From positions 607,793-671,792 of the forward strand of contig CAVYXI010000018.1 in assembly GCA_963772435.1 (NCBI GenBank): a stretch of DNA of 64,000 nucleotides. Direction: 5' to 3'. Both the position numbers and the translations under genes were made by a program. This DNA is from an uncultured Gammaproteobacteria bacterium (GTDB lineage: Bacteria > Pseudomonadota > Gammaproteobacteria > Xanthomonadales > Rhodanobacteraceae). The notes beneath the pieces were generated by a model, which searched no databases, was not told the DNA's origin, and saw nothing but the letters and a program-made list of their open reading frames with translations. Shown piece by piece: positions 13,088-63,764 of the stretch. Position 1 is the stretch's first letter. Every line of letters begins with the position of its first letter.

Positions 13088-13741
13088 ATGACCAACGATT
13101 TCCCGAGGTCGTCTTCGCCTTCCGCGCCGGAGGGGATCGCTGTTCGCAACGCACCGGCCGCGAGCATGCAGAATTCATCGGATCGCGCCGACGCCGGGCC
13201 AGAGTCGGCCGCATCGGCGACATTTCTCCCGGCGATCGAAGGAACGGAGACGGTACGCGCGCGCGCCGTTCTCGCGGCGGGCACATGGCCTGTCGAGGCG
13301 GCGTGCGATCGCATCACGCTCGACTACGAAGGCCGCCATCGCCGGCGCTTTCGCTATGTCGCGGACGGCGGCATCGATTTCGTGCTCGATCTTGCGCAAA
13401 CGGCACTGCTGCATGACGGCGATGGCTTGAAGCTGGACGATGGTCGCCTCATCGCAGTGCGGGCTGCCCCCGAATCGCTGGTCGCTGTGACTGCAGCGGA
13501 TGCTGATGCGCTGCTGCGTCTCGCCTGGCATATCGGCAATCGCCACCTGCCCGCGCAGTTGTCGGCGACACGGATCCTCATCCGCAACGACGCGGTCATC
13601 GTCTCGATGCTGCGCGGACTCGGCGCGACGGTCGAGGAAATCACGGCGCCATTCACGCCCGAGCGTGGCGCCTACGCGCATGCGCACGAGACGCATGCCC
13701 ATCCGTTCGTATTCACATCGGGCCATGGAAATGGGCTCTGA
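13088..13741 (+). CDS. ureE: urease accessory protein UreE (possible N-terminal extension)
   Basis: It has a UreE-like core (…LRLAWHIGNRHLPAQL…) and a His-rich tail (HAHETHAHPF). The start could instead lie downstream, for example at MQNSS. Confidence 0.75.
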   Translation: MTNDFPRSSSPSAPEGIAVRNAPAASMQNSSDRADAGPESAASATFLPAIEGTETVRARAVLAAGTWPVEAACDRITLDYEGRHRRRFRYVADGGIDFVLDLAQTALLHDGDGLKLDDGRLIAVRAAPESLVAVTAADADALLRLAWHIGNRHLPAQLSATRILIRNDAVIVSMLRGLGATVEEITAPFTPERGAYAHAHETHAHPFVFTSGHGNGL

Positions 13742-13850
13742 CGCCCCTGTCATGCCACTGCCTTCGCACCCGGACAAAGGCTGCGAGGGGAACGTGAGTC
13801 CTCGTGATGGCACAGACGCCGGCCCAGGATCGCCTTCGTTCGCGCGCACG

Positions 13851-13918
13851 CGGAAATCCCATGCCATCGTCTCGCAGGAGAAACAGCCACTGGATTCCCA
13901 CGTGCGCGGGAATGACGG
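13851..13918. repeat. imperfect palindromic element (CGCGCACGCGGAAATCCC … GGATTCCCACGTGCGCG) in the unusually long (~220 bp) ureE–ureF spacer
   Basis: The inverted repeat arms are about 17 bp long with 2 mismatches and a 32-nt spacer. This resembles the short REP-like palindromes common in Burkholderia intergenic regions. Confidence 0.4.
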
Positions 13919-13958
13919 ACGGGAGCGGGGCGTGGCCGCCGAAGCACCCGCTGCTTCC

Positions 13959-14657
13959 ATGCAAGCGCAAGAAACAGCACAGATGCCCGACGGCTTTTCC
14001 CGGCTGCTCGCATGGACGTCCCCGTCGTATCCGACCGGCGCGTTCAGCTACAGCCACGGCCTCGAGTGGGCGGTCGAGGAAGGCGGCGTCCGGGACTGCG
14101 CGACGCTCGTTGCCTACATCGAGGCGGTGCTCGCGCGCGGCGGCGGCTGGATCGATGCGGTGCTGTTCGCGCACGCACATGGGTGCGCGCGCGACCCCGC
14201 CGCGTTCGACGAGATCGCCGAACTCGCCGCGGCGTTTCGCGGCAGCGCCGAAACCGCCCTCGAAAGCCAGCAGCAAGGCATGGCATTTCTCACTGTCACG
14301 CGCCGAGCGTGGCCGCACCCCGCACTCGACGCCTTCGCGACGCGCGACGAAACCTTGCCCATCGCGCACAGCATCGCCATGGCGTTGGCCTGCGCCGTGC
14401 ACGGCATCGCGTGCAGGCCCGCGCTCACTGCCTGGCTGCACGGCACTGCCGCCAATCTCGTCTCGGCCGGCGTGCGCCTGATCCCGCTCGGCCAGACGGA
14501 CGGACAGATCGCGATCGCCCGGCTCGCGCCGCGCATCGAAGAACTCGCGGCACTTGCGATGCAAACCTCGCTCGACGATCTCGGCACGGCGGCGCCGCTG
14601 CTCGAGCTCTGTTCGATTCGCCACGAAACCCAATACACGAGGCTGTTTCGCTCATGA
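13959..14657 (+). CDS. ureF: urease accessory protein UreF
   Basis: The UreF pattern is present ([28 protein letters not shown]…). The alternative start MPDGF is 24 bp downstream. Confidence 0.85.
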
Positions 14658-15094
14658 AGATCCTCGCCGCCGTTGTTTTCGTCCTGCTCTCGGCGATCGC
14701 CGCGCTGCATGTCGCGTGGGGATTCGGCCTGCGCTGGCCCGCGCGCAACGAGCGCGAACTTGTCGCGACCGTGATCGGCGCGAAACGACGCGAGCACCTG
14801 CCGAGCCTTGCGCAGTGTTTCGCCGCCGCGGCGGCGATCTTCGGCGCAGGTTGCGTCGCGCTGCTGATGAGCGGCCTCGTCGACTCTTTGCTGCCGCGTC
14901 ACATGCTCACAATCGCCGGTATCGTGCTGCTCGGCGTGTTCGCGTTGCGCGGCATCGCGGCCTACCTGCCCGCCTGGCGGAACGTGTTTTCGCAGGAACC
15001 TTTCGCACGCTACGACCAGATCTACTACGCGCCGTTGTGCCTGTTCGTGGCACTCGTATTCGCCCTGCTCCTGATCGAGCGCCTCAAGAGTTGA
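14654..15094 (+). CDS. DUF3995-like small membrane protein embedded in the urease operon
   Basis: The product is 146 aa and contains 4 predicted TM helices. The ATG overlaps the ureF stop (tcATGa). Confidence 0.65.
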
Positions 15095-15099
15095 TATCG

Positions 15100-15756
15100 A
15101 TGAATGTTGAACAAGGAAACACGGGACCCTTGCGCGTCGGCATCGGCGGACCCGTCGGCTCAGGCAAGACCGCGTTGACCGAGCGGCTGTGCAAGCTGCT
15201 GCGCGACAGCTACGACGTCGCCGCTGTGACCAACGACATCTACACGCGCGAGGATGCCGAGTTCCTCACGCGCGCGGGCGCGCTCGCGCCCGAACGCATC
15301 GTCGGCGTCGAGACGGGCGGCTGTCCGCATACGGCGATCCGCGAGGACGCGAGCATCAACCTCGCGGCGGTCGCGGACATGCACCGGCGTTTTCCGGGAC
15401 TCGAACTGATCTTCATCGAGTCGGGCGGCGACAACCTCGCGGCGACATTCAGCCCCGAACTCGCCGACCTGACGATCTACGTGATCGACGTTTCCGCGGG
15501 CGACAAGATCCCGCGCAAGGGTGGCCCCGGCATCACGCGGTCCGACCTGCTCGTGATCAACAAGATCGATCTCGCGCCGCTCGTCGGCGCCTCGCTCGAG
15601 GTCATGGATCGCGACGCGAGGAAGATGCGCGGCGCGCGACCCTTCGTATTCAGCAATCTCAAGATCAATCGCGGCCTTGCCGAGATCGCGCAGTTCATCG
15701 TCGACAGCGGCGGCCTGCCTCGACGTCCACTCAAGGAGATTCCGAACCATGCATAA
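15100..15756 (+). CDS. ureG: urease accessory GTPase UreG
   Basis: The P-loop GGPVGSGKT is present, together with the rest of the canonical UreG sequence. Confidence 0.95.
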
Positions 15757-16340
15757 GAAAATCGGTCCCTGTCTTGCGCTGGCGGCGCTGCTCGTGGCCG
15801 GCAATGCGGCGGCGCACCCCGGGCACGGCGGCGTCGACGGATGGGCTGCGGGCTTCGTAGCACCCGCTCTCGGGCGCGGATCATCTGATCGCGATGGTCG
15901 TCATCGGCATCTGGGCAGCGCAACTCGGCGGGCGGGCGCTATGGGCGCTGCCATTGTCGTTTCTTTCGATGATGACGCTCGGCGCCGCGCTCGCGATCGC
16001 CTGCGGCGCGAACCTGTTCGCCGCTTCGGCAATCGAATCGGCCATCGCCGCTTCGCTGCTCGTCCTCGGCCTCGCCGTCGCGCGTGCGGCGCAGAATGCC
16101 GGTCGCGACCGCGATGGCGCTGACCGCGTCGTTCGCCCTGTTCCATGGCATCGCGCACGGCGTCGAGTTGCCGACGCTGGCCGACCCGTTCCGCTACGGG
16201 CTCGGCTTCGTCGCCGCGACGGCGATGCTGCACGCCGGCGGCGTCGCGATCGGCCTCGTCATGCAGCGCAACGCGCCGGTGCTCGCGCGCGTGTCAGGGG
16301 CGGCGACGGCCGCGGCGGGCGTCGCGCTCCTTCTCGGTTG
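15749..16340 (+). CDS. ureJ: HupE/UreJ family Ni transporter; two frameshifts in this sequence
   Basis: The N-terminus is [28 protein letters not shown]. The middle part [35 protein letters not shown] and the C-terminal part …[13 protein letters not shown]…[10 protein letters not shown] lie in two other frames. Confidence 0.7.
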
Positions 16341-52194: not shown

Positions 52195-54449
52195 TCTGAT
52201 CAATCAGGGCAATGTCGACCTCGCCGAAGTGGTCGAGGAACTCGGCAAGACGGTGTCGCTCGATCGCGGATCGGCGCAAGCCGCACCGAACGCCGCGGCG
52301 AATCCACGCCGCGATTTTCTCAAGTCGACCGCGACGATTTCCGCCGGCCTCGTGATCGCCTGCTTCGTGCCGCTCGGCGCGCGCCGCGCGTTCGCCGAAG
52401 CGAAGGGGTCCGACGCGCTGCCGCTGTCGTACCACCGAACGCCTTCGTACGCATCGCGCCCGACAACAGCGTGACCGTGCTGCTCAAGCACTCGGAGATG
52501 GGCCAGGGCGTGTGGACGTCGATTCCGATGGTCGTCGCCGAGGAACTCGACTGCGACTGGTCGAAGGTACAGGTCGAGCACGCACCGGCCGCGCCCGAAT
52601 ACGCGCACACCGCGTTCGGCATCCAGATGACTGGCGGCTCGACGAGCACGTGGGAGTCGTTCGACCAGCTGCGTCAGGCCGGCGCGATGGCGCGCGCGCT
52701 GCTGATCGGGCGGCGGCGCAGAAGTGGAACTGACAAGCCGCCGACTGCCGCACCGAGAATGGTTTCGTCGTCTGCGGCGACGCACCAGGCGAGCTATGGC
52801 GAACTCGCCGAGGCGGCGGCGAAGCTGCCGCTGCCCGGCGATCGTCACGCTCAAGGATCGCGAAGGATTTCCGCGTCATCGGCAAGCCGACGAAGCGGCT
52901 CGACAGCAAGGCCAAGGTCACCGGCAAGGCCGAGTTCGGCATCGACGTGAAGCGGCCGAACATGGTCGTCGCGGTCGTCGCGCGCGCGCCCGTGTTCGGC
53001 GCGAAGGTGAAATCGTTCGACGCGAGCAAGGCCAAGGCCGTCGCGGGCGTCGTCGACGTCGTGCAGGTGCCGACCGGCGTCGCAGTGCTCGGCAAGCACT
53101 TCTGGGCGGCCAAGCAGGGTCGCGATGCGCTCGTGATCGACTGGGACCTCGGCCCCGGCGCCGCGATCTCGACGGCCGCGCTGCGCGATGACTACCGCAA
53201 GCAGGCACAGACGGTCGGCGCGGTCGCGAAGACGGCCGGCGATGTCGACGCGGCGTTCAAAGGGACGGCCAAGGTCATCGAAGCCGAATACGAAGTGCCA
53301 TTCCTCGCGCACGCGCCGATGGAGCCCGAGAACTGCACCGTCGAGATCGGCAAGGACGGCGCGGACATCTACACCGGCACGCAGTTCCAGACCTTCGACC
53401 AGATGCTGTCGGCGAAGATTCTCGGCCTCAAGCCCGAACAGGTGCGCATCCACACGACGTTCCTCGGCGGCGGCTTCGGCCGGCGCGCGAATCCGACCTG
53501 CGACTACGTGACCGAAGCGGTCGAGGTCGCGAAGGCGTCGGGCAAGACCGTGAAGGTGGTCTGGACGCGCGAGGACGACATCCACGGCGGCTACTACCGC
53601 CCGATGTGGCTCTCGCGCGTGCGCGCGACCCTGGGCAAGGACGGCAAGCCCGCGGCGTGGGCGCACTCGATCGTCGGCCAGTCGATCATCGCCGGCACGC
53701 CGTTCGCGCCGATGATGATCAAGGACGGCGTCGACACGACGAGCGTCGAGGGCGCCGCCGACTCGCCGTATCTCGAAAGCGTGCCGGTGCATCGCGTCGA
53801 CCTGCATTCGCCGACGAGTCCGATCTCCGTGCTGTGGTGGCGCTCGGTCGGCCACTCGCATACGGGCTTCGTCGTCGAGAGCTTCGTCGACGAGCTCGCG
53901 CACGCGGCCAGGCAGGATCCGCTCAAGTACCGGCGCGCGCTGCTGCCCGAGAAGTCGCGCGAACGCCTCGCGCTCGACCTCGCCGCCGAGAAGTTCGGCT
54001 GGGGCAAGCCGCTGCCGAAAGGTCACGCGGCCGGCATCGCCGTGCACCAGTCGTTCGGCAGCTATGTCGCGCAGATCGCGGAAGTGTCGGTCGACGACAA
54101 GAAGCAGATCCGCGTGCATCGCGTCGTCTGCGCGATCGACTGCGGCCCGGTCGTCAATCCGCTCACGGTCGAGGCGCAGATGCAGTCAGGCATCGACTTC
54201 GGCCTGTCCGCCGCGCTGCATTCCGAACTGACGTTCAAGGACGGCAAGCCCGAGCAAAGCAATTTCCACAACTACACCGTGCTGCGCCTCAACGAGGCGC
54301 CGCACATCGAGGTGCACATCGTGCCGAGCACCGACAAGATGGGCGGCTGCGGCGAACCCGGCACGCCGCCGATCGCGCCGGCCGTGGCGAATGCGGTGTT
54401 TGCGGCGACGGGGCAGCGGTTGCGGAAGCTGCCTTTGCGGATCGCGTAA
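52184..54449 (+). CDS. molybdopterin-binding large subunit of the same oxidoreductase (IorB-like), Tat signal; about 3 frameshifts
   Basis: The Tat motif is [18 protein letters not shown]. The Mo-pterin dehydrogenase body is in ORFs 52471-52950 and 52947-54449 (…FLGGGFGRR…). Confidence 0.8.
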
Positions 54450-54469
54450 TCGCGAGGAGTCGAACCGTA

Positions 54470-54499
54470 GGTTGGGGTGGGCAAGCGCGAACCCCAACC
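54470..54499. terminator. 9-bp-stem hairpin GGTTGGGGT-N12-ACCCCAACC between the convergent iorB-like and SagB-type dehydrogenase genes
   Basis: This is a perfect inverted repeat read in the sequence, and it separates two convergent genes. There is no T-tract, so it may be a bidirectional or Rho-assisted terminator. Confidence 0.4.
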
Positions 54500-54551
54500 C
54501 TTCGGAACAGCATCGTCCGAGCGGAGCTAGCACGCTCGACTCAACCGGCGA

Positions 54552-55817
54552 TTACTCCGGCTGCGCGACACCGTCAGGCCACACTTTTCGATTCGGATCG
54601 AACTCGAACGTTTCGCACTCGGGTCCGCGGTGACCGAAGCCGACAACGGCAAGCGGACTTTCAACGAGCGGGTCGAGGCCGAAAGCCTGCTCGACGTCGA
54701 TCTCGTTCATCGCTGCCGTGATAAATGCACCCAGACCAAACTCGGTCGCCGAGATGTAGAGCGTTTGCGAGAGGTGTCCCACGTCCAGAATTGCAACGCG
54801 ATAGGCCTTGTTGTGGTTGCGGTATTTCCAGAACGTGCGCGGAAAGCGCGATGCGAGAACGATCATCACCGGCGCGTTCATGTAGTAATGCTGCGCTGCG
54901 ACCATGAGCCGCGCGAGCACTGTTAAGTCGCCATCCTGCGGCGGCGACAGAGGCTCCAGCGCGTGATCGATCGTGTGGTAGTGATATAGCCCCGGCGCGA
55001 TGCCATCGACGCGCTGCACGAGGAGATATGCCTCTGTCGGATGCAGACCGCCGCCGGACGGACTCGTGCGCTTGATGACAACGTTGTCCGCGTGAATTTC
55101 GTATGCCGCCTGCGCGCCGAATACGCGGCGCATGATATGCGAAAAAGTTGCGCTGTCGAGACTCTTCGACGAATCGAAATTGCGGCAGGTCGCACGACGC
55201 GCAAGCAGGTCGTCGATCGCCGTAGGTTCCGTCTGCGGAAGGGCAATGCGCGCCGCAGGCGGCCCGCAATCGAGCACGTGCGATGGCGGCTGACCAAGAC
55301 GCTCGAACAGCTCCGTCATCGAACAAAGGCTTGCATTGATAGTATCTTCGCCGGAAAGAACACCGCGCCAGCGACCGAAGTAATGCGATACCGCAGAGTG
55401 CGCCTGCCAGTTGCCGTCTCGCAATAGGTCATCGCGCGCACGCATATCGGACGATGCTTCGTCGTCGCCTATCAGCAGCCCTTTGGCCAACAAATCACGA
55501 ATCAGTTCCTCGCCGAAGCGCGTTGCGAGGCCATCGAATTCCGTCCAGTGCGCCGCAACCAGATTGCGGAGTAGATTTGCTTCGGCGTCCGTCACACCGA
55601 CTTCCTTGCCCAGATGCGGCGCCAGAGCTAGAAGCTCGATACGCGCATCTAGTCCATCGCCACCATGGGCGAGCGACTCCAAACTGAATTCGAGTTTCTC
55701 GCGAGGCTCGAGAAGCAAGATGGCACAACGTTTTATTCGCACGGGCAGACATTCCGATGACTCGGCGCGCAAGTTTCGCACGATACTGCCCACTGACAGC
55801 TGACTTCGCTTTGGCAT
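54552..55817 (-). CDS. SagB/ThcOx-type FMN dehydrogenase ('putative peptide maturation dehydrogenase')
   Basis: It has the nitroreductase-fold SagB signature [16 protein letters not shown]. The ORF is intact and encodes 421 aa (start MPKRSQLS; MRLSLRAR 42 bp upstream is an alternative). It is divergent from the small precursor-like gene. Confidence 0.8.
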
Positions 55818-56094
55818 TGCGATCTGTCGGCGCACCCGAGCCCGAAGCGACAGCCGCATGCCTTGCTGTGTCCAGGTTGTCGGACAAAGCAATCATCAAG
55901 CAAGTGCACAGGTGCTGACCGATATGCTGCTGGCGACCATGGGCTACCAACCCCACAAACCTCAGGCCAATTAGCAGCGGCTCCGACTCGCCTTGCGGTG
56001 CAAAGTCGATCGGCCATTCCCAAGCAAGTTGTTGCGCGAATCGGCGCTAGGTACACTGCTGGCGCACGCATCGTGCGGCCTCTTTGGGGGATTT

Positions 56095-56361
56095 ATGGCA
56101 GGGACAAAACTGACACCGGATCTGGTCGACAAGCTGCTGGACAAACTCGCGACCGACGATTCGTTTCGCGAAGCGTTCGACAAAGATCCGACTTCTGCGA
56201 TGCATCAAATCGGCGCGCCGAAGGATTTTGATTGCGGGATCTGCACACGACCCGAGCCGATGGCTTCGAAGGAGCAGTTCAGACGTAGCCGCGACGCGTT
56301 CCGTCAAACATTGCTCGGCCAAACCGCACTCAGCGTCTTCACGCTGAAAACGCCGCGATAG
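56095..56361 (+). CDS. 88-aa putative modified-peptide precursor (Nif11/NHLP-like leader)
   Basis: A strong RBS tgggggat precedes the ATG. The leader MAGTKLTPDLVDKLLDKLATDDSFREAFDKDPTSAMHQIGA resembles Nif11/NHLP leaders. The core begins PKDFDCGICTRPEPM…. The gene is flanked by the SagB-type dehydrogenase and the cyclase-TPR gene. Confidence 0.7.
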   Translation: MAGTKLTPDLVDKLLDKLATDDSFREAFDKDPTSAMHQIGAPKDFDCGICTRPEPMASKEQFRRSRDAFRQTLLGQTALSVFTLKTPR

Positions 56362-56371
56362 GCATTGACGA

Positions 56372-59026
56372 TCAAGCTCGGCTCAAAAGGCTTTTGAGCC
56401 GAGCGCCGATGCTGGCGGGCAGCTTTTCCTGTGGCCATGCCGCTTTGAATTGATCGAGTGCTTTGTGCGATTCCTCATCTCGTCCGAGCTTGCGGCTGAT
56501 TTCAGCTGTACGCAGCAACGCGAGATTGGATTCGATTACGTTGCGCGCCTGCAAAAGCTGGGAACTATTCCATTCCAGATATGCGCGCCCGCGGTTCTTG
56601 ACCAGCCAGTTTGCTGACTTCGCCGCGTCTTCGTACCGTCCCGCTGCAGTGTAGGCGTCCGCGAGTGCGACGTGGGTCAGGTACAGTTCGGTGCCATCAA
56701 CTGTCGGCAGGAGCCGTGCAATTGCATCCTGTGGCCTGCCCTCGCGCGAGAATAGCTCGGCTTCGACGATCGCCAGCAGATGCTCCAAGTTCGGAAATCC
56801 GCTTGCGCGGGCCTGCGGTGTCGCGGCCGTCAATGCAGCTTGCGCCGCCGTGTAGTCTTCTGCCCGCGCAAGAAGGTAAGCCCCGTACAACACGGCGAAC
56901 ACGTCGTCGTCATGATTTGTGGCGACTGACTGATCCATCGCTTTGCGCGCATCCGCAGTGAATTCCCGCGCCGCCGCCGCCTGGCGTGAAATCGGTGCGA
57001 AGTAGTCATCGATGCTCAGTTCAATGCCACGTCCAACTAGCGCATATCTGCCCCCGACGCTGACGGCAGCTTTTGCGTAGTCGGCTGCCTTGAGGCGCGC
57101 CACGTCCCAACTGCCTTCGTCGAGGTGCAACGTAACGATCGCTTGCGGCGCCGCCAGATCTGCGGCCGGTATGCCGGAGGCTTTCACTTTTTCGAGCAAC
57201 TGCGCTGCTTCCGCAAATCGGCGCTCGGCAGCAAATGAGTTCGCATGAAAAATTCCCTGTGCAGTATGTCCGAGCGATTCGGCTCTGCGAAAATTCTGCT
57301 GCGCTTCGCCGTATTGACCCATCGCCGCCTGCAATGAAGCGAGCGTATAAAACGCGGAGCCGCGGAAAGGATCGTGTTCGGAAAGTGCAGGACTGATGGC
57401 CTTCGCTGCCTCCTCATACCGGTTCTCGTATTGCCACGAGAAGTTAGCGACGTTGTTTGCCGCCGCGTAGTAGTCGGGATAGAGCTTACCAAGCAGTTGC
57501 CACTTGTCGATCATCGGACCCGGTGGCCCGAAGTTGCTGAGCCAAGCATCGACATAAAGCTGGTCGCGAGGCGAAAGGCGATCCTTGAGGGCCCCCGCCT
57601 TGTGTGCGTACTCGTAGGCAGACGCATCCGCATTGTTGTTTACGTAGACGCGCGCCATGCCCATGTATGCGAGTGCGAAGTTTTCGTCGAGTTCGATCGC
57701 ATGGCGAAAAAGACCGAGCGCATCCGCACTTCTTCCGCCAGCCAGGGCCTGCAGACCCAACGAGTAACTGCGCAACGCATCGAGGTTGGAAGTCGTCACT
57801 TTCGGCAACGGCGCATTGTTCGCCTCAATCGACGCCACCGCTTCGCCAAGCCGGCCACGCAGTTCGCCCGAGACCTTGCCGACCGAAGGAAGAATCGAAT
57901 CGAGTCCGATGCCGTCTGCGGTCCCGGCGTACACGGTTGCCTGCGTATGCGGATCGACCACTTCGGCGGTCACGCGCACGCGACCACCGATTTCGGCCAC
58001 GCTCGGCAGGATGAGTGCGCGCGCGCCTTCGCGTAGCGCGATTTCGTAGCCGATCTCGCGATCGATCTTCGTGCCACCGGGTTTCTGCATGCGCTTGAGC
58101 GCGTCGCTTACCTGCAGGCTCGAAACGAGATTGACGATAGCGCGACTGCTCGAGGCTCGACGCGAAACGCGGTATCCAGCGAGTCGTCGAGCACGCCCTG
58201 GCCGGTCTGGTTTCGCAGGTCGCCGACGACGACCCAGTCGCGTTCGGCAAATGCGATCGCAGGCGGACTGCGCAGCGAGAAATAGGCGGGGACCGCGATC
58301 GCGGTGATCACGACCGCCGCTTCGACGAACAGCATGCCCGGGCGGCGCCACCACGGAATCTCACGGTGAGCCTTGCCGGTCCACGCGGGCGCACGGAACG
58401 GCGCGACGCCTTCCTCGCCGACTTCATGCACCTGCACGGGCTCGGGCACACCCTTGAACCGATAGTTGCCGTGCGCCTGCCAGCGCACGCGCGAATCCAT
58501 TTCGCCCAATTCGGAGCGCGCGCGCTGCGCGAGCGTGCTTGCCATGCCCGAGAGCAGGATCTGGCCGGGCCGCGCGATGCTCATGATGCGCGCGGCCGTC
58601 GGCTTGACGAGGCCTTCGACTTCGACGGGCTTGGCGCCGCGCGCGACGTCGTGCGCGTTGTTGTCCCAGATGACGACGTCGCCGACGTGGATGCCGATGC
58701 GTGCCGCAAGCGGCAGCGATTCGGTTTTGCTCAGCGCACGCAGTTCAGCGCTGGTAGTCGAGCGCGAACGCGACCGCGTGGACCGGTCGCTCGAACAGGA
58801 TCAGGAAGCCATCGGTCTTGTCGATCTCGCGGCCGTGGTGGCGTTCGACGAGGTCGCGGGCGAGACGGTCGTGCTGGCGCATGACTTCGGCACCGCGCTG
58901 GTCGCCGAGCTTCTCGACGAGGGCGGTGCTGTCGGCGAGATCGCAGATCACGAGCGTGCGCAACACGGGCGCAGGCATGGCCCGATCCGGCAGTCCGACT
59001 GGCAGCTCGTTCGCTATCGCGTTCAT
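56372..59026 (-). CDS. class III adenylate/guanylate cyclase domain – TM – TPR fusion protein ('putative peptide modification system cyclase'); 2 frameshifts
   Basis: The N-terminal cyclase domain is VLRTLVICDLADSTALVEKLGDQRGAEVMRQHDRLARDL…GIHVGDVV. A TM segment (MLFVEAAVVITAIAVPAYF) follows. A ~650-aa TPR-rich C-terminus follows that. The protein is split over ORFs 58745-59158, 58108-58584 and 56372-58354. Confidence 0.8.
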
Positions 59027-59284
59027 ACGTTCGCCGTATAACGCAGGGCCGGCCCTGGACTTCAGGGACGAGACAAACGACATTCCCCCGCTGGACTGAG
59101 GATTTTGCGCGAAATCAATGCGGTTGGCCAGCGGATGTTGCGACGCAACGAACCGCAATATTCGCCATCCCCGGACCGGCCGCCAACCCTGGATGCCGGC
59201 CTTCCGACCTCGCGGCGCGCTTCGATACGCGGCGCGGAGCCAGCACCCCGAAGTTGCGGCTGCGTCGGCCGCCGCGATTTGCCG

Positions 59285-60312
59285 TCAGGCTCGTCCTTCT
59301 AGGAAGCGACGCCACCCGTGCGCCAGGCGTCCCCACCCTCGCCCTTGGCGGCATAGAGTGCGCGGTCGGCCTCGCTGTACCAGGTCGACCAATCGGCACG
59401 TTCGTCGCACAGGTTGGCACCGACGCTGACGGTGAGCGACACCATGTCGTGTGGCGGCGTCAGCTGCAGCGAACGCACTGTGGCCACGATGTTGCGCGGC
59501 GCGTTTGGCGAGTTCGGCGATGTCGTCGAGCTGGACGAGCATCGCGAACTCGTCGCCGCCGAGACGGCAGCAGAGTTCGCAAGTAGCCGACACTGCGGCA
59601 GAGTTCGTCGGCGACCGGCAGAGCGAACGATCGCCGACGAGATGGCCGAACTGGTCGTTGATCGTCTTGAAACGGTCGAGGTCGACGAGGAAGCAGCGCC
59701 AGCCGCGTGCCCGGCCATGCGCTGGTCGGCGAGGTCTTCGAGGAACTGATAGAGGCCGCGACGGTTGGTCAGGCCGGTCAGTTCGTCGGTGCGCACGAGG
59801 TTGTTCGCGTTCGTCAGCATCGTCTGCGTCTGCCGCAGCGAGTGCAGCGTCGAGATGCAGATCTTCGTTGCGACGCTTCAGATTGGCGATCAGCTGTTGC
59901 TCGCTTGCGACGAGGTAGGTGAACGAGCGACGCATGAATTTCGCGAGCAGCAGCGGTTCGCTCGCCAGCAGGTTCTCGAAGCCGGCCTGGTCGATCACGC
60001 GCAGCTGGCTCGTCCGTCGTCGCGATCGCGCTGGCGACGCGCTCGTGGTCGCCGATGAACAGGGCCAGTTCGCCGAGGAATTCGCGTTCGCCGATCAGCT
60101 TCGTGCGAGGCCGTCGCCGAATTCGAGATGGATTTCTGCCGCTCTCGATGACGAACATGCTGCGGCCGAGTTCACCCTTGCGGAAGATGGCTTCACCCGG
60201 CGCGAACGCTGCGCGCCTGTCCGGCGGCGCGGAACAGGTTGAACTCCGCTTCGGAAAGTTGGCGCGGCAGTGTCGTAGCTGCGGCCTTTTCGTCGGGCGT
60301 GTTCGGACGCAT
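59285..60312 (-). CDS. cyclic-nucleotide-binding domain + GGDEF diguanylate cyclase; several frameshifts
   Basis: The cNMP-binding part is …FVIESG…LIGEREFLGELALFIGDHERVASAIATTD. The GGDEF part is …RTDELTGLTNRRGL…CRLGGDEFAMLV…RALYAAKGEGGD. Confidence 0.65.
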
Positions 60313-60594
60313 CCGCTGCGTCCGGTGATATGGGCAAGGCGACGGCACTCTTCCCCTGTAGCGACACGCGCATCCTTCGCGAATCATCTTATGCGAATCG
60401 CTGCCGCTGTCCCATCGGCCAGACGCGATTGGCCGGGTGAAAACGTTTTCACCGGCCAATTTCCGACAGACGGCGCGAATTGGCGGTTACTCGGGATATC
60501 GGTATCGGGCTTATCTCGACCCGATACCACGGGTGGCGAGAAATCGCGCTCCGCCGTCCTCTGACGGCCTATCCGAGCGAGGTCGCCTGGTCTC

Positions 60595-61898
<1,304 letters not shown>

Positions 61899-61976
61899 GC
61901 GGTTCCTTGGACGACGATCGGGGTGAGGGTATGCGCCGCGATACAGCCGCGGCTTTTGGTGCAGGGGAAACGGGTT

Positions 61977-62336
61977 TCAGGTTTCGACGACGGCGCGCGT
62001 CGAGGCAACGTCGGTATAGACCGTTTCAGCGAGCTGGCGAGCCGCCCCGAGCAGGCGCGTGCGCGCGTCGATGCCGGCGGCGGGCAGACGTTCTTCGACG
62101 CTGAGGATCGTCGAATCGAACAGCGCGAAATCGATCGGCCGGCCGTCATCGAGCGCATGACGGTCGTCGGTGAGCCAGGCACGAAGCTGCGCTTGCGCGG
62201 GTTCACTGGTCGCCGCGACCGACCTCGCGAGCAGCGACGCCACGCAGCGATCGACGCAGTCGGTGAATTCGCTGTGCGTGACCGCCGGTGATGGCATCTG
62301 CGCGATGGCCTGCTCGTGGTTCGTTGCCGTGTCCAT
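61977..62336 (-). CDS. hypothetical protein (119 aa) upstream of aceA
   Basis: Its GC3-rich codon usage is consistent with a real gene. No family was recognised. Confidence 0.35.
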   Translation of the reverse strand: MDTATNHEQAIAQMPSPAVTHSEFTDCVDRCVASLLARSVAATSEPAQAQLRAWLTDDRHALDDGRPIDFALFDSTILSVEERLPAAGIDARTRLLGAARQLAETVYTDVASTRAVVET

Positions 62337-62380
62337 ACTCGTATGTATGCTCGGATGCTGCAGAGCAACACTAGGCTCTT

Positions 62381-62490
62381 CAAAGATGTATTTGACAAAC
62401 TGAATGTTTCAATCTAATTATTTGACAATGTCAAATCGTAGTTCAAATTCATTGAATTCAAAACCAATGTCAACGACCACTTGAAAAGAT
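62381..62490. promoter_or_regulatory. AT-rich divergent promoter/operator region between the 61977-62336 gene and the LysR gene, with palindromes TTTGACAaTGTCAAA (62421-62435) and TTGAATTCAA (62452-62461)
   Basis: This is a sharp local GC drop in a ~67% GC background. It contains repeated TTGACA motifs and two palindromes. Confidence 0.5.
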
Positions 62491-63517
62491 CCAAAGTCGG
62501 AACGCGCGAACGAAAGCGCTGCATGCCAAGCGTACGGCGGAAAGGGCGCACGCGGCGCGGCGCCTGCGCGGTTCTACTACAAGGGGAATCGGCTCAAGCA
62601 GCTGCGTGCGTTCTGCTACGCGTCAAATTCGGCAGCGATCGCGCGCGCGGCGGAATCGCTGTTCCTGTCGGCGTCGTCGGTGAGCCTGCAGTTGTCGGCG
62701 CTCGAAATCGAACTCGAGGACGCGCCTGCTCGAACGCACGCGTCCGCGCCTGACGCTGACCCACGAAGGACAGCTGCTCTACGACCTCGCACGCCCGCTC
62801 GTCGAAGGCATGGAGAATCTCGATCAGCAGTTTCGCCAGCAGCGCGGCGGCGTCCAGGGCCGTCGAGGTGCATATCGCCGCGGGTGCATCGACGATCCAG
62901 TACCTGCTGCCGCCGCTGGTGCGCGACTATCGCGAGCGTCATCCCGACGTGCGCCTGCAGCTCGCCAATGTCACCGGCAAGGACGGCCTGGCCTTGCTGC
63001 GGTCGGACGAGGTCGACTTCGCGGTGGGCTCGATGCTCGACGTACCCCACGATCTCGTCTACGAACCGGTGCAATGGTTCGACCCGATGCTGATCCTGCC
63101 GCCCGGACCACGCGCTCGCCGCCAAGACCGAACTATCATCTCGCGGATCTGTCGCCTTACGGACTGATCCTGCCGCCGCAGCGGCTGACGACGTATCGCA
63201 TGATCGATCTCGTCTTCCAGCAGGCGCAAGGTGCCGTATCACGTCGCGATCGAAGTCGGCGGCTGGGAAGTGATCAAGCAGTACGTCGCGATGGGTCTCG
63301 GCATTTCGATCGTCACCGGCATCTGCATCGGCGATCAGCGATTCCGAGCGCCTCGTCGTGCGCAACATGCGCCGCTATTTTCCGCAGCGCAGCTATGGCG
63401 TCGTGATGCGCAAGGGAAAGTACCTGAGTGCGCAGGCGCGCGCATTCATCGATCTCGTCAAGCCGGGGCTGTTCGCGCGCCGCGACTACTACGAGGCGGG
63501 ACATTCGGATCGCTGAA
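62481..63517 (+). CDS. LysR family transcriptional regulator divergent from aceA; multiple frameshifts, start uncertain
   Basis: The HTH is …YKGNRLKQLRAFCYASNSAAIARAAESLFLS…. The substrate-binding domain is …LLPPLVRDYRERHPDVRLQLANVTGKDGLALLRSDEVDFAVG…. These are spread over three frames. Confidence 0.65.
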
Positions 63518-63764
63518 GGCAGCGGCGACGCGGGCGTCCGCGCGTCGACAGAACCCGGAGCCGCTGCAGATGTGCCGTATGCAGCGGCTCCGGGCGGGGC
63601 CGCGCCGAAGCGCGGACCACCAACCAAATCCGATGACGCCGGCACGCGCCCCGGATGAAGCCTAACCGAGTCGAACAACGCAGTGGTTAAGGTTTTGTAG
63701 TCGATCGCAGATGTATCATTGTATACAATGCGGCATTTACGAATGATTCATGCAAGTGAACGAG

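Follow-up and report, generated by a model that had tools for sequence, protein, structure and literature searches.

A Rhodanobacteraceae cyclase–GGDEF gene pair that probably forms a cGMP to cyclic-di-GMP relay, with a convergent NHLP-like peptide gene at its side

We examined a 64,000-nucleotide stretch of contig CAVYXI010000018.1 (assembly GCA_963772435.1), from an uncultured bacterium of the Rhodanobacteraceae and hereafter called the window, for a gene cassette built around a large protein with a class III nucleotide cyclase domain and a neighbouring protein that joins a cyclic-nucleotide-binding (cNMP) domain to a GGDEF diguanylate cyclase domain. In transcription order, the minus-strand genes begin with isocitrate lyase (approximately 60601–61885), followed by the cNMP-GGDEF gene (59299–60312; ATG at 60312, TAG stop at 59299–59301), the cyclase gene (56372–59026; ATG at 59026, TGA stop at 56372–56374) and an intact gene for a SagB-related flavin mononucleotide (FMN) dehydrogenase of the 'putative peptide maturation dehydrogenase' family (54552–55742; TIGR04511; Pfam Nitroreductase). 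Between the cyclase and dehydrogenase genes, on the plus strand, lies a gene for an 88-residue NHLP-related peptide (56095–56361; TIGR04509), the start and stop of which were verified; it converges on the cyclase gene, and with just 10 nt between their stop codons the two genes probably have overlapping transcripts. A first-pass annotation, made from the DNA letters without database searches, had correctly recognized the cNMP-GGDEF fusion, its strand and its start, but had extended the gene to 59285, a position that belongs to an out-of-frame open reading frame (ORF). Both the cyclase and the GGDEF gene carry frameshifts in the deposited sequence, and intact homologues from a syntenic locus (L001) were aligned to the window DNA by a frameshift-aware dynamic programme.

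The corrected cyclase protein is approximately 884 residues long and matches its intact homologue (P0001 in L001) at 651 of 879 positions. Its largest fragment alone scores 458.5 bits, for a cut-off of 400, on the NCBIfam model TIGR04510, 'putative peptide modification system cyclase', and the two upstream fragments match positions 2–76 and 131–271 of the same model. The N-terminal domain (58411–58969), predicted to be cytoplasmic, matches the solved class III cyclases Ma1120 and Rv1900c at E-values of 1e-15 to 1e-20. An AlphaFold model of the N-terminal 223 residues, built on 14 family sequences (pLDDT 88.6), superposes on the cyclase domains of these same two proteins, its top Foldseek matches (E ~1e-14, TM 0.87–0.89). 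Profile alignment to both structures places the metal-binding aspartates at D29 (CDLADS, within 58928–58945) and D72 (KTDGF, part of EIDKTDGF at 58805–58828) and the catalytic arginine at R146, in the AAR of the segment VEVEGLVKPTAAR (58588–58626), which also contains E135 and P142; these coordinates, and those of the RFKGV landmark (58447–58461), were verified by translation. D29, D72 and R146 are invariant in alignments of 23 and 14 family members, and both metal aspartates and the arginine are likewise invariant in the alignments of the two subfamilies described below. D69 and E135 form an acidic pair, common to both subfamilies, at positions that we take, from the alignment and from general knowledge of class III cyclases, to specify the substrate; adenylate cyclases carry Lys/Asp there. 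The second half of the domain also contains a family-specific insert, WxNxxxDxxxGAKPxExEG.

Ma1120 and Rv1900c, the closest solved structures, are mycobacterial adenylate cyclases that are soluble or differently fused. The window cyclase shares their fold, their metal aspartate pair and their catalytic arginine, whereas its family differs from them in an insert of approximately 10 residues, the acidic substrate pair, a membrane anchor and a sensor region. Among full-length family members, P0140, P0253 and P0264 lack one or both metal-binding aspartate motifs; these could be versions of this receptor with a pseudo-cyclase domain.

The membrane anchor is a 22-residue hydrophobic segment, GMLFVEAAVVITAIAVPAYFSL (residues 230–251; 58273–58338), read from the sequence as a single transmembrane helix and situated after the cyclase domain, with the basic stretch KAHREIPWWRRP just before it; conservation of WWRRP plus the hydrophobic segment is visible across the family alignments. 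Because this basic stretch and helix follow the cyclase domain, the approximately 630 residues C-terminal to them (56375–58272) are predicted to lie outside the cytoplasm, and from the positive-inside rule we infer an N-in, C-out topology. This predicted extracytoplasmic sensor region consists of a conserved juxtamembrane module and, after it, an array containing TPRs, with weak Pfam matches to TPR_12/TPR_19 and LpoB-like. The placement of a class III cyclase domain N-terminal to a transmembrane helix and TPR region, claimed in the first-pass annotation, is thus borne out by the TIGR04510 assignment, the structural model, the Foldseek matches and the TPR matches.

After frame correction, the GGDEF protein passes the Pfam gathering scores for both of its domains: cNMP_binding (PF00027, 60.4 bits, residues 34–117) and GGDEF (PF00990, 105.6 bits, residues 174–324), which correspond to 59955–60213 and 59334–59790, coordinates that the frameshifts make approximate. 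It matches the intact L001 homologue at 206 of 316 positions, with no in-frame stop. The GGDEF motif is present in all 69 proteins compared, comprising the window protein and 68 locus homologues, and a motif survey of the same 69 sequences did not detect an RxxD inhibitory site in the GGDEF domain.

To our knowledge, XC_0250 of Xanthomonas is the only gammaproteobacterial guanylate cyclase to have been characterized. In Xanthomonas campestris pv. campestris 8004, this 886-residue protein, with a cyclase domain followed by TPRs, is the first component of a relay from cyclic GMP (cGMP) to cyclic-di-GMP (An et al. 2013, EMBO J 32:2430, PMC3770947): it is required for cellular cGMP, which is lost in XC_0250 mutants, and its isolated cyclase domain converts GTP to cGMP without any adenylate cyclase activity. 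The linked cNMP-GGDEF protein, XC_0249, has a more than 60-fold binding preference for cGMP over cyclic AMP (cAMP), its diguanylate cyclase activity is enhanced by cGMP, and mutants of the two genes have phenotypes in common (PMC3770947).

The window pair resembles this system in several respects. Like XC_0250, the window cyclase combines an N-terminal class III cyclase domain with a TPR-containing remainder at nearly the same length, has a cNMP-GGDEF gene directly upstream, and carries an acidic pair at the presumed substrate-specifying positions (I-D and E-V-E-G, in both subfamilies). Like XC_0249, the window GGDEF protein has cNMP_binding and GGDEF domains within approximately 340 residues and an intact GGDEF motif; the equivalents of the XC_0249 residues F73, E90, H98 and E146 are conserved in 69 of 69 proteins. 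The best solved-structure match for the cNMP domain of the L001 homologue is PDB 5h5o (E 3e-27, about 50% identity), a 129-residue 'diguanylate cyclase' chain whose numbering reproduces the published XC_0249 contacts F73, E90, H98, N145 and E146, and which on that numbering appears to be the XC_0249 cNMP domain. The structure cited for that domain in the original study is 4KG1 (An et al. 2013, PMC3770947), which was absent from the solved-structure matches of the GGDEF protein in L001. The cNMP-domain sequence of 5h5o, used as a protein query, gave eight short fragments only and no Xanthomonas entry.

The TIGR04510 family comprises two subfamilies that are approximately 40% identical, one with the motifs CDLADS…EIDKTDGF (subfamily 1, with the window and other Rhodanobacteraceae) and one with TDLCDS…LIDRSDGL (subfamily 2, including Xanthomonas). 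Subfamily 2 takes in proteins labelled 'putative peptide modification system cyclase' by NCBI from Xanthomonas, Pseudoxanthomonas, Lysobacter and Thermomonas; its Xanthomonas members were found by querying with a subfamily-2 member, P0181. The six published XC_0250 residues (D41, D71, L73, A150, L157 and A161) fit subfamily 2: D41, D71 and L73 were counted in P0181 (same numbering) and in the Xanthomonas protein P0326 (offset 7), and all six match alignment A3 on the numbering of P0215 (offset 6). Subfamily-1 members, too, accommodate five of these six residues. The XC_0250 study aligned the canonical asparagine and arginine to L157 and A161, whereas in our profile alignment the arginine is the retained R146 and the asparagine alone is substituted. 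P0326 is collinear with the corrected window cyclase from end to end, and its locus (L162) has the gene arrangement of the window, in the order LysR regulator, malate synthase, isocitrate lyase, cNMP-GGDEF, cyclase, opposite-strand small peptide and nitroreductase-family gene; the cNMP domain of its GGDEF neighbour is 65% identical to 5h5o. On these indirect grounds we assign XC_0250 to the TIGR04510 family.

The adjacency on which the first-pass idea of a relay had leaned proved to be widespread. A scan with one genome per species identified 455 relatives, from which we retained the 80 best loci. A cNMP-GGDEF gene lies immediately upstream of the cyclase on the same strand in 66 of the 72 genome loci with sufficient upstream sequence (median gap 226 nt). 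A SagB-like gene occurs no more than 2 kb downstream of the cyclase in 57 of 58 loci. The conserved unit consists of the GGDEF gene, the cyclase gene, at least one convergent NHLP-like peptide gene and the SagB-like dehydrogenase gene, and this four-part order, including the GGDEF gene directly upstream, is repeated in nearly all of the loci with sufficient flanks among 79 subfamily-2 loci from a metagenome scan seeded with that subfamily. Beyond the unit itself, a LysR regulator gene and glyoxylate-shunt genes adjoin the GGDEF gene from Rhodanobacteraceae through Xanthomonas (60601–63600 in the window, 5903–8750 in L001 and 2483–6624 in L162); the shunt gene is isocitrate lyase, to which Xanthomonas adds malate synthase.

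We propose, with a probability of roughly 80%, that the locus is a Rhodanobacteraceae-type version of the X. campestris cGMP to cyclic-di-GMP relay. The large protein would be a receptor-type guanylate cyclase, with a cytoplasmic class III domain, one membrane helix and an extracytoplasmic sensor region, that upon an input signal would convert GTP to cGMP, as reported for XC_0250. By analogy with XC_0249, and in view of the conserved contact residues, cGMP would then bind the cNMP domain of the adjacent GGDEF protein, raising its diguanylate cyclase activity, with cyclic-di-GMP as the output. The first-pass suggestion of a relay from a cyclic nucleotide to cyclic-di-GMP is supported by the catalytic residues, the conserved adjacency and the published Xanthomonas pair. 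That suggestion had left the messenger as cAMP or cGMP; it is most likely cGMP, because the pair matches the XC_0250/XC_0249 pathway and because the four XC_0249 contact residues and the GGDEF motif are invariant.

Several observations weigh against this proposal. The asparagine–arginine pair of the cyclase domain is incomplete: of the catalytic residues singled out in the first-pass annotation, both metal aspartates and the arginine are present and invariant, but the asparagine position is occupied by Pro142, nearly invariant in the family. The generic Pfam model PF00211 stays below its threshold (17.5 versus 21.9 bits), marking the family as highly divergent, and together with the Asn-to-Pro substitution this means that activity cannot be assumed from sequence alone. 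Rv1900c, however, likewise lacks the canonical asparagine, with His (VAVHIGAR) at the position aligned to Pro142, and the cyclase domain of XC_0250, which we place in this family, is reported to be active all the same. In the GGDEF protein, the equivalent of the XC_0249 contact N145 is Ser, both in the window and in 67 of 68 locus homologues. The window cyclase shares only about 43% identity (over 868 residues) with P0326 of Xanthomonas, a protein from which it differs in its motifs (CDLADS/EIDKTDGF versus TDLCDS/LIDRSDGL) and in a highly divergent extracytoplasmic region, and the assignment of XC_0250 itself to the family is indirect, drawing on published residue numbers, length, architecture, neighbourhood and the Xanthomonas homologue. 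The biochemistry comes from a single study, and no independent replication was found in the searched literature. All sampled carriers with a named organism are Lysobacterales (Xanthomonadales), so that vertical inheritance contributes to the conserved gene order. Finally, 6 of the 72 loci have a cyclase without a GGDEF neighbour; these six have Kef-type antiporter, flavin adenine dinucleotide (FAD) oxidase, short-chain dehydrogenase and pirin genes as neighbours and carry tandem cyclase–peptide pairs. We considered them as a refutation of the link and rejected this, as they represent a second genomic site with tandem cyclase–peptide pairs.

Three alternative explanations bear on these points. 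The cyclase-like domain might be a pseudo-cyclase, or a nucleotidyl-transferring or peptide-modifying enzyme of a pathway for peptides that are made on ribosomes and modified after translation (RiPPs), with the GGDEF gene an incidental neighbour. The database name 'peptide modification system cyclase' would then be apt, as would the locking of the gene to NHLP-like peptide and SagB-like dehydrogenase genes, and the Pro142 substitution, the family-specific insert, the low PF00211 score and the loss of metal aspartates from P0140, P0253 and P0264 all point the same way. We nevertheless regard this as improbable: XC_0250 has guanylate cyclase activity in vitro and its mutants lose cGMP (PMC3770947), both metal aspartates and the arginine persist through two divergent subfamilies, the GGDEF neighbour retains four of the five published cGMP-contact residues in all 69 cases, and the remainder of the protein, extracytoplasmic by prediction, would be separated from a peptide substrate in the cytoplasm. 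Even less probable, and in our estimate very unlikely, is that the GGDEF–cyclase adjacency is merely synteny inherited within one bacterial order and devoid of functional meaning. The restriction of named loci to Lysobacterales is what such inheritance would produce, and 43 of the 66 GGDEF-bearing loci, as well as Xanthomonas, have isocitrate lyase as a further neighbour; yet the GGDEF–cyclase adjacency is kept where the outer flanks differ (in 19 of the 66 loci no isocitrate lyase gene lies within 4 kb, although 3.5 kb or more of upstream sequence is available), and it spans both subfamilies. Divergence of the GGDEF protein and of the cyclase domain is also coupled (rho 0.69 in the first of the two locus sets described below, and 0.67 as a partial correlation given the sensor region), and the functional link has been published for the Xanthomonas pair (PMC3770947).

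The third alternative is that in this organism the cyclase and GGDEF genes have truly become pseudogenes and the relay no longer operates; the first-pass annotation had called function uncertain on account of the frameshifts. The frameshifts are indeed present: the cyclase gene has three, each of +1 nt, near 58744, 58155 and 58133, and the GGDEF gene has at least eight single-base frameshifts within about 1 kb (at 60201, 60134, 60105, 60014, 59854, 59712, 59687 and 59491), while the deposited annotation calls only a 572-residue fragment (P0005). However, every functional motif is intact after frame correction, and the inspected corrected translations of the GGDEF and isocitrate lyase genes are free of in-frame stops. 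The isocitrate lyase gene contains 11 frameshifts, yet its protein is identical to that of L001 at 400 of 426 positions (94%), and a molybdenum cofactor (MoCo)-binding oxidase subunit with six frameshifts matches L001 at 646 of 757 positions once corrected. Across these four genes, 24 of the 28 mapped frameshifts are +1 insertions. A scan of GC content at third codon positions (GC3) divides the 64 kb into 91 phase blocks, many of just 150–400 nt; the short blocks cluster at 22–28 kb, 41–46 kb and 59–63 kb, with long clean stretches elsewhere, a patchiness that is the signature of indel-rich sequence rather than of gene decay. Single-base indels, most of them insertions, thus lie in patches throughout the window, and gene calls anywhere in this assembly can be expected to be broken up. 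The preserved identity of isocitrate lyase in particular leads us to read the frameshifts as artefacts; they are almost certainly assembly or sequencing errors rather than loss of function, the organism itself probably has an intact system, and we consider that the two genes are unlikely to be pseudogenes.

With the relay as our preferred explanation, the remaining members of the cassette invite attention. The window peptide scores 63.6 bits against TIGR04509 (cut-off 34) and is 84% identical to the L001 peptide, with no Pfam match; the dehydrogenase scores 483.7 bits against TIGR04511 (cut-off 240) and, in a single frame, shares 64% identity with its L001 counterpart across 396 residues. The corresponding Xanthomonas peptide (L162, 10559–10888, minus strand) gives a sub-threshold match to PF14407 (Frankia_peptide, a ribosomal-peptide family; 31.7 bits, cut-off 48). 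A promoter and terminator scan of 54400–60700 was uninformative, with one weak terminator-like hairpin only (56431–56443, plus strand), approximately 70 nt past the peptide gene and within the 3′ end of the cyclase coding sequence. Using a peptide hidden Markov model (HMM) built from regular-expression matches, the regular expression alone having missed about one third of loci, we found a convergent NHLP-like ORF no more than 400 nt from 158 of 161 cyclase 3′ ends, with a median stop-to-stop distance of 8 nt in subfamily 2. Sixteen loci carry the cyclase in duplicate or triplicate, and there almost all copies have a peptide of their own.

The multicopy loci include L018, with three cyclase copies, and L023, L027, L034, L048, L053, L055, L057, L060, L066, L069, L077 and L079, with two each; in L077 the second cyclase (13131–15806) directly follows the first peptide. 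Such tandem pairs of duplicated cyclase and convergent peptide usually share one SagB-like gene. In one metagenome locus (L100, 4825–10213), a single cyclase gene is followed by seven consecutive NHLP-like peptide ORFs and two SagB-like genes.

Thiazole/oxazole-type RiPP clusters combine an NHLP-leader precursor with a YcaO cyclodehydratase and a SagB dehydrogenase. The window family shares with them an NHLP-like precursor-type peptide with a recognizable leader and a SagB-family FMN dehydrogenase, but its invariant partner is a signalling cyclase, and among the called genes within 8–10 kb in L001 and L162 we found no YcaO, peptidase-transporter or other tailoring enzyme. Nor did the called genes of these two loci include an exporter or protease, and no signal peptide was seen in the NHLP-like peptides. 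Across 51 peptides, a conserved N-terminal half is followed by a variable, usually Cys-containing C-terminal half.

We then compared rates and patterns of divergence within the cassette, using rank correlation of pairwise distances and partial Mantel tests on two independent locus sets (n = 54 and 31); these permutation runs supersede a 21-locus run based on Pearson r. Mean pairwise identity across the two sets is 0.63–0.71 for the cyclase domain, 0.62–0.64 for the GGDEF protein, 0.52–0.53 for the SagB-like dehydrogenase, 0.43–0.45 for the extracytoplasmic region, the fastest-evolving part of the cyclase protein, and 0.38–0.42 for the peptide. Peptide divergence tracks that of the extracytoplasmic region with control for cyclase-domain, GGDEF-protein or dehydrogenase divergence (rho 0.40–0.65; each p = 0.001, the floor of 1000 permutations, in both sets), and given the sensor region its correlation with the cyclase domain is approximately zero. 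This co-variation fits a cognate peptide–sensor relationship. Physical linkage alone could also yield it, and much the same would be seen after recombination if the breakpoints fell within the cyclase gene, since the gene order runs from GGDEF through cyclase domain, sensor and peptide to dehydrogenase. We tentatively suggest, as a possibility about which we are more doubtful than confident, that the convergent NHLP-like peptide, possibly oxidized by the SagB-like enzyme, is the cognate ligand or regulator of the cyclase sensor, and that the unit is a cascade from a self-produced peptide through cGMP to cyclic-di-GMP. The first-pass suggestion that the cassette may serve regulation or peptide sensing, instead of being a classical RiPP cluster, gains genomic support from the pairing and the co-variation, though short of proof.

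The relay itself is already published for XC_0250/XC_0249 (PMC3770947), and it figures among cyclic-di-GMP and Xanthomonas reviews in the searched literature; as an added member of that Xanthomonas pathway, the window relay, a new one from a sister family and of Rhodanobacteraceae type, therefore changes little. In the same literature we found no paper that names the TIGR04509–TIGR04511 cassette or ties it to XC_0250, and a search combining NHLP, SagB, cyclase and Xanthomonas returned nothing relevant. The locus thereby bridges two bodies of annotation that stand unconnected in the searched literature, the 'peptide modification system cyclase' and the XC_0250 family, and it argues that the former name is misleading.

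What emerges is a guanylate cyclase family paired one-to-one with an NHLP-like peptide gene, with a SagB-like dehydrogenase gene alongside, and the pairing of an XC_0250-type cyclase with its own small peptide gene looks unreported. The peptide is a candidate input for bacterial cGMP signalling, and the pairing makes testable the question of what switches this signalling on, which the 2013 study left open. If true, the reading of the peptide as ligand or regulator would supply the input, so long unknown, of bacterial cGMP signalling of the XC_0250 type.

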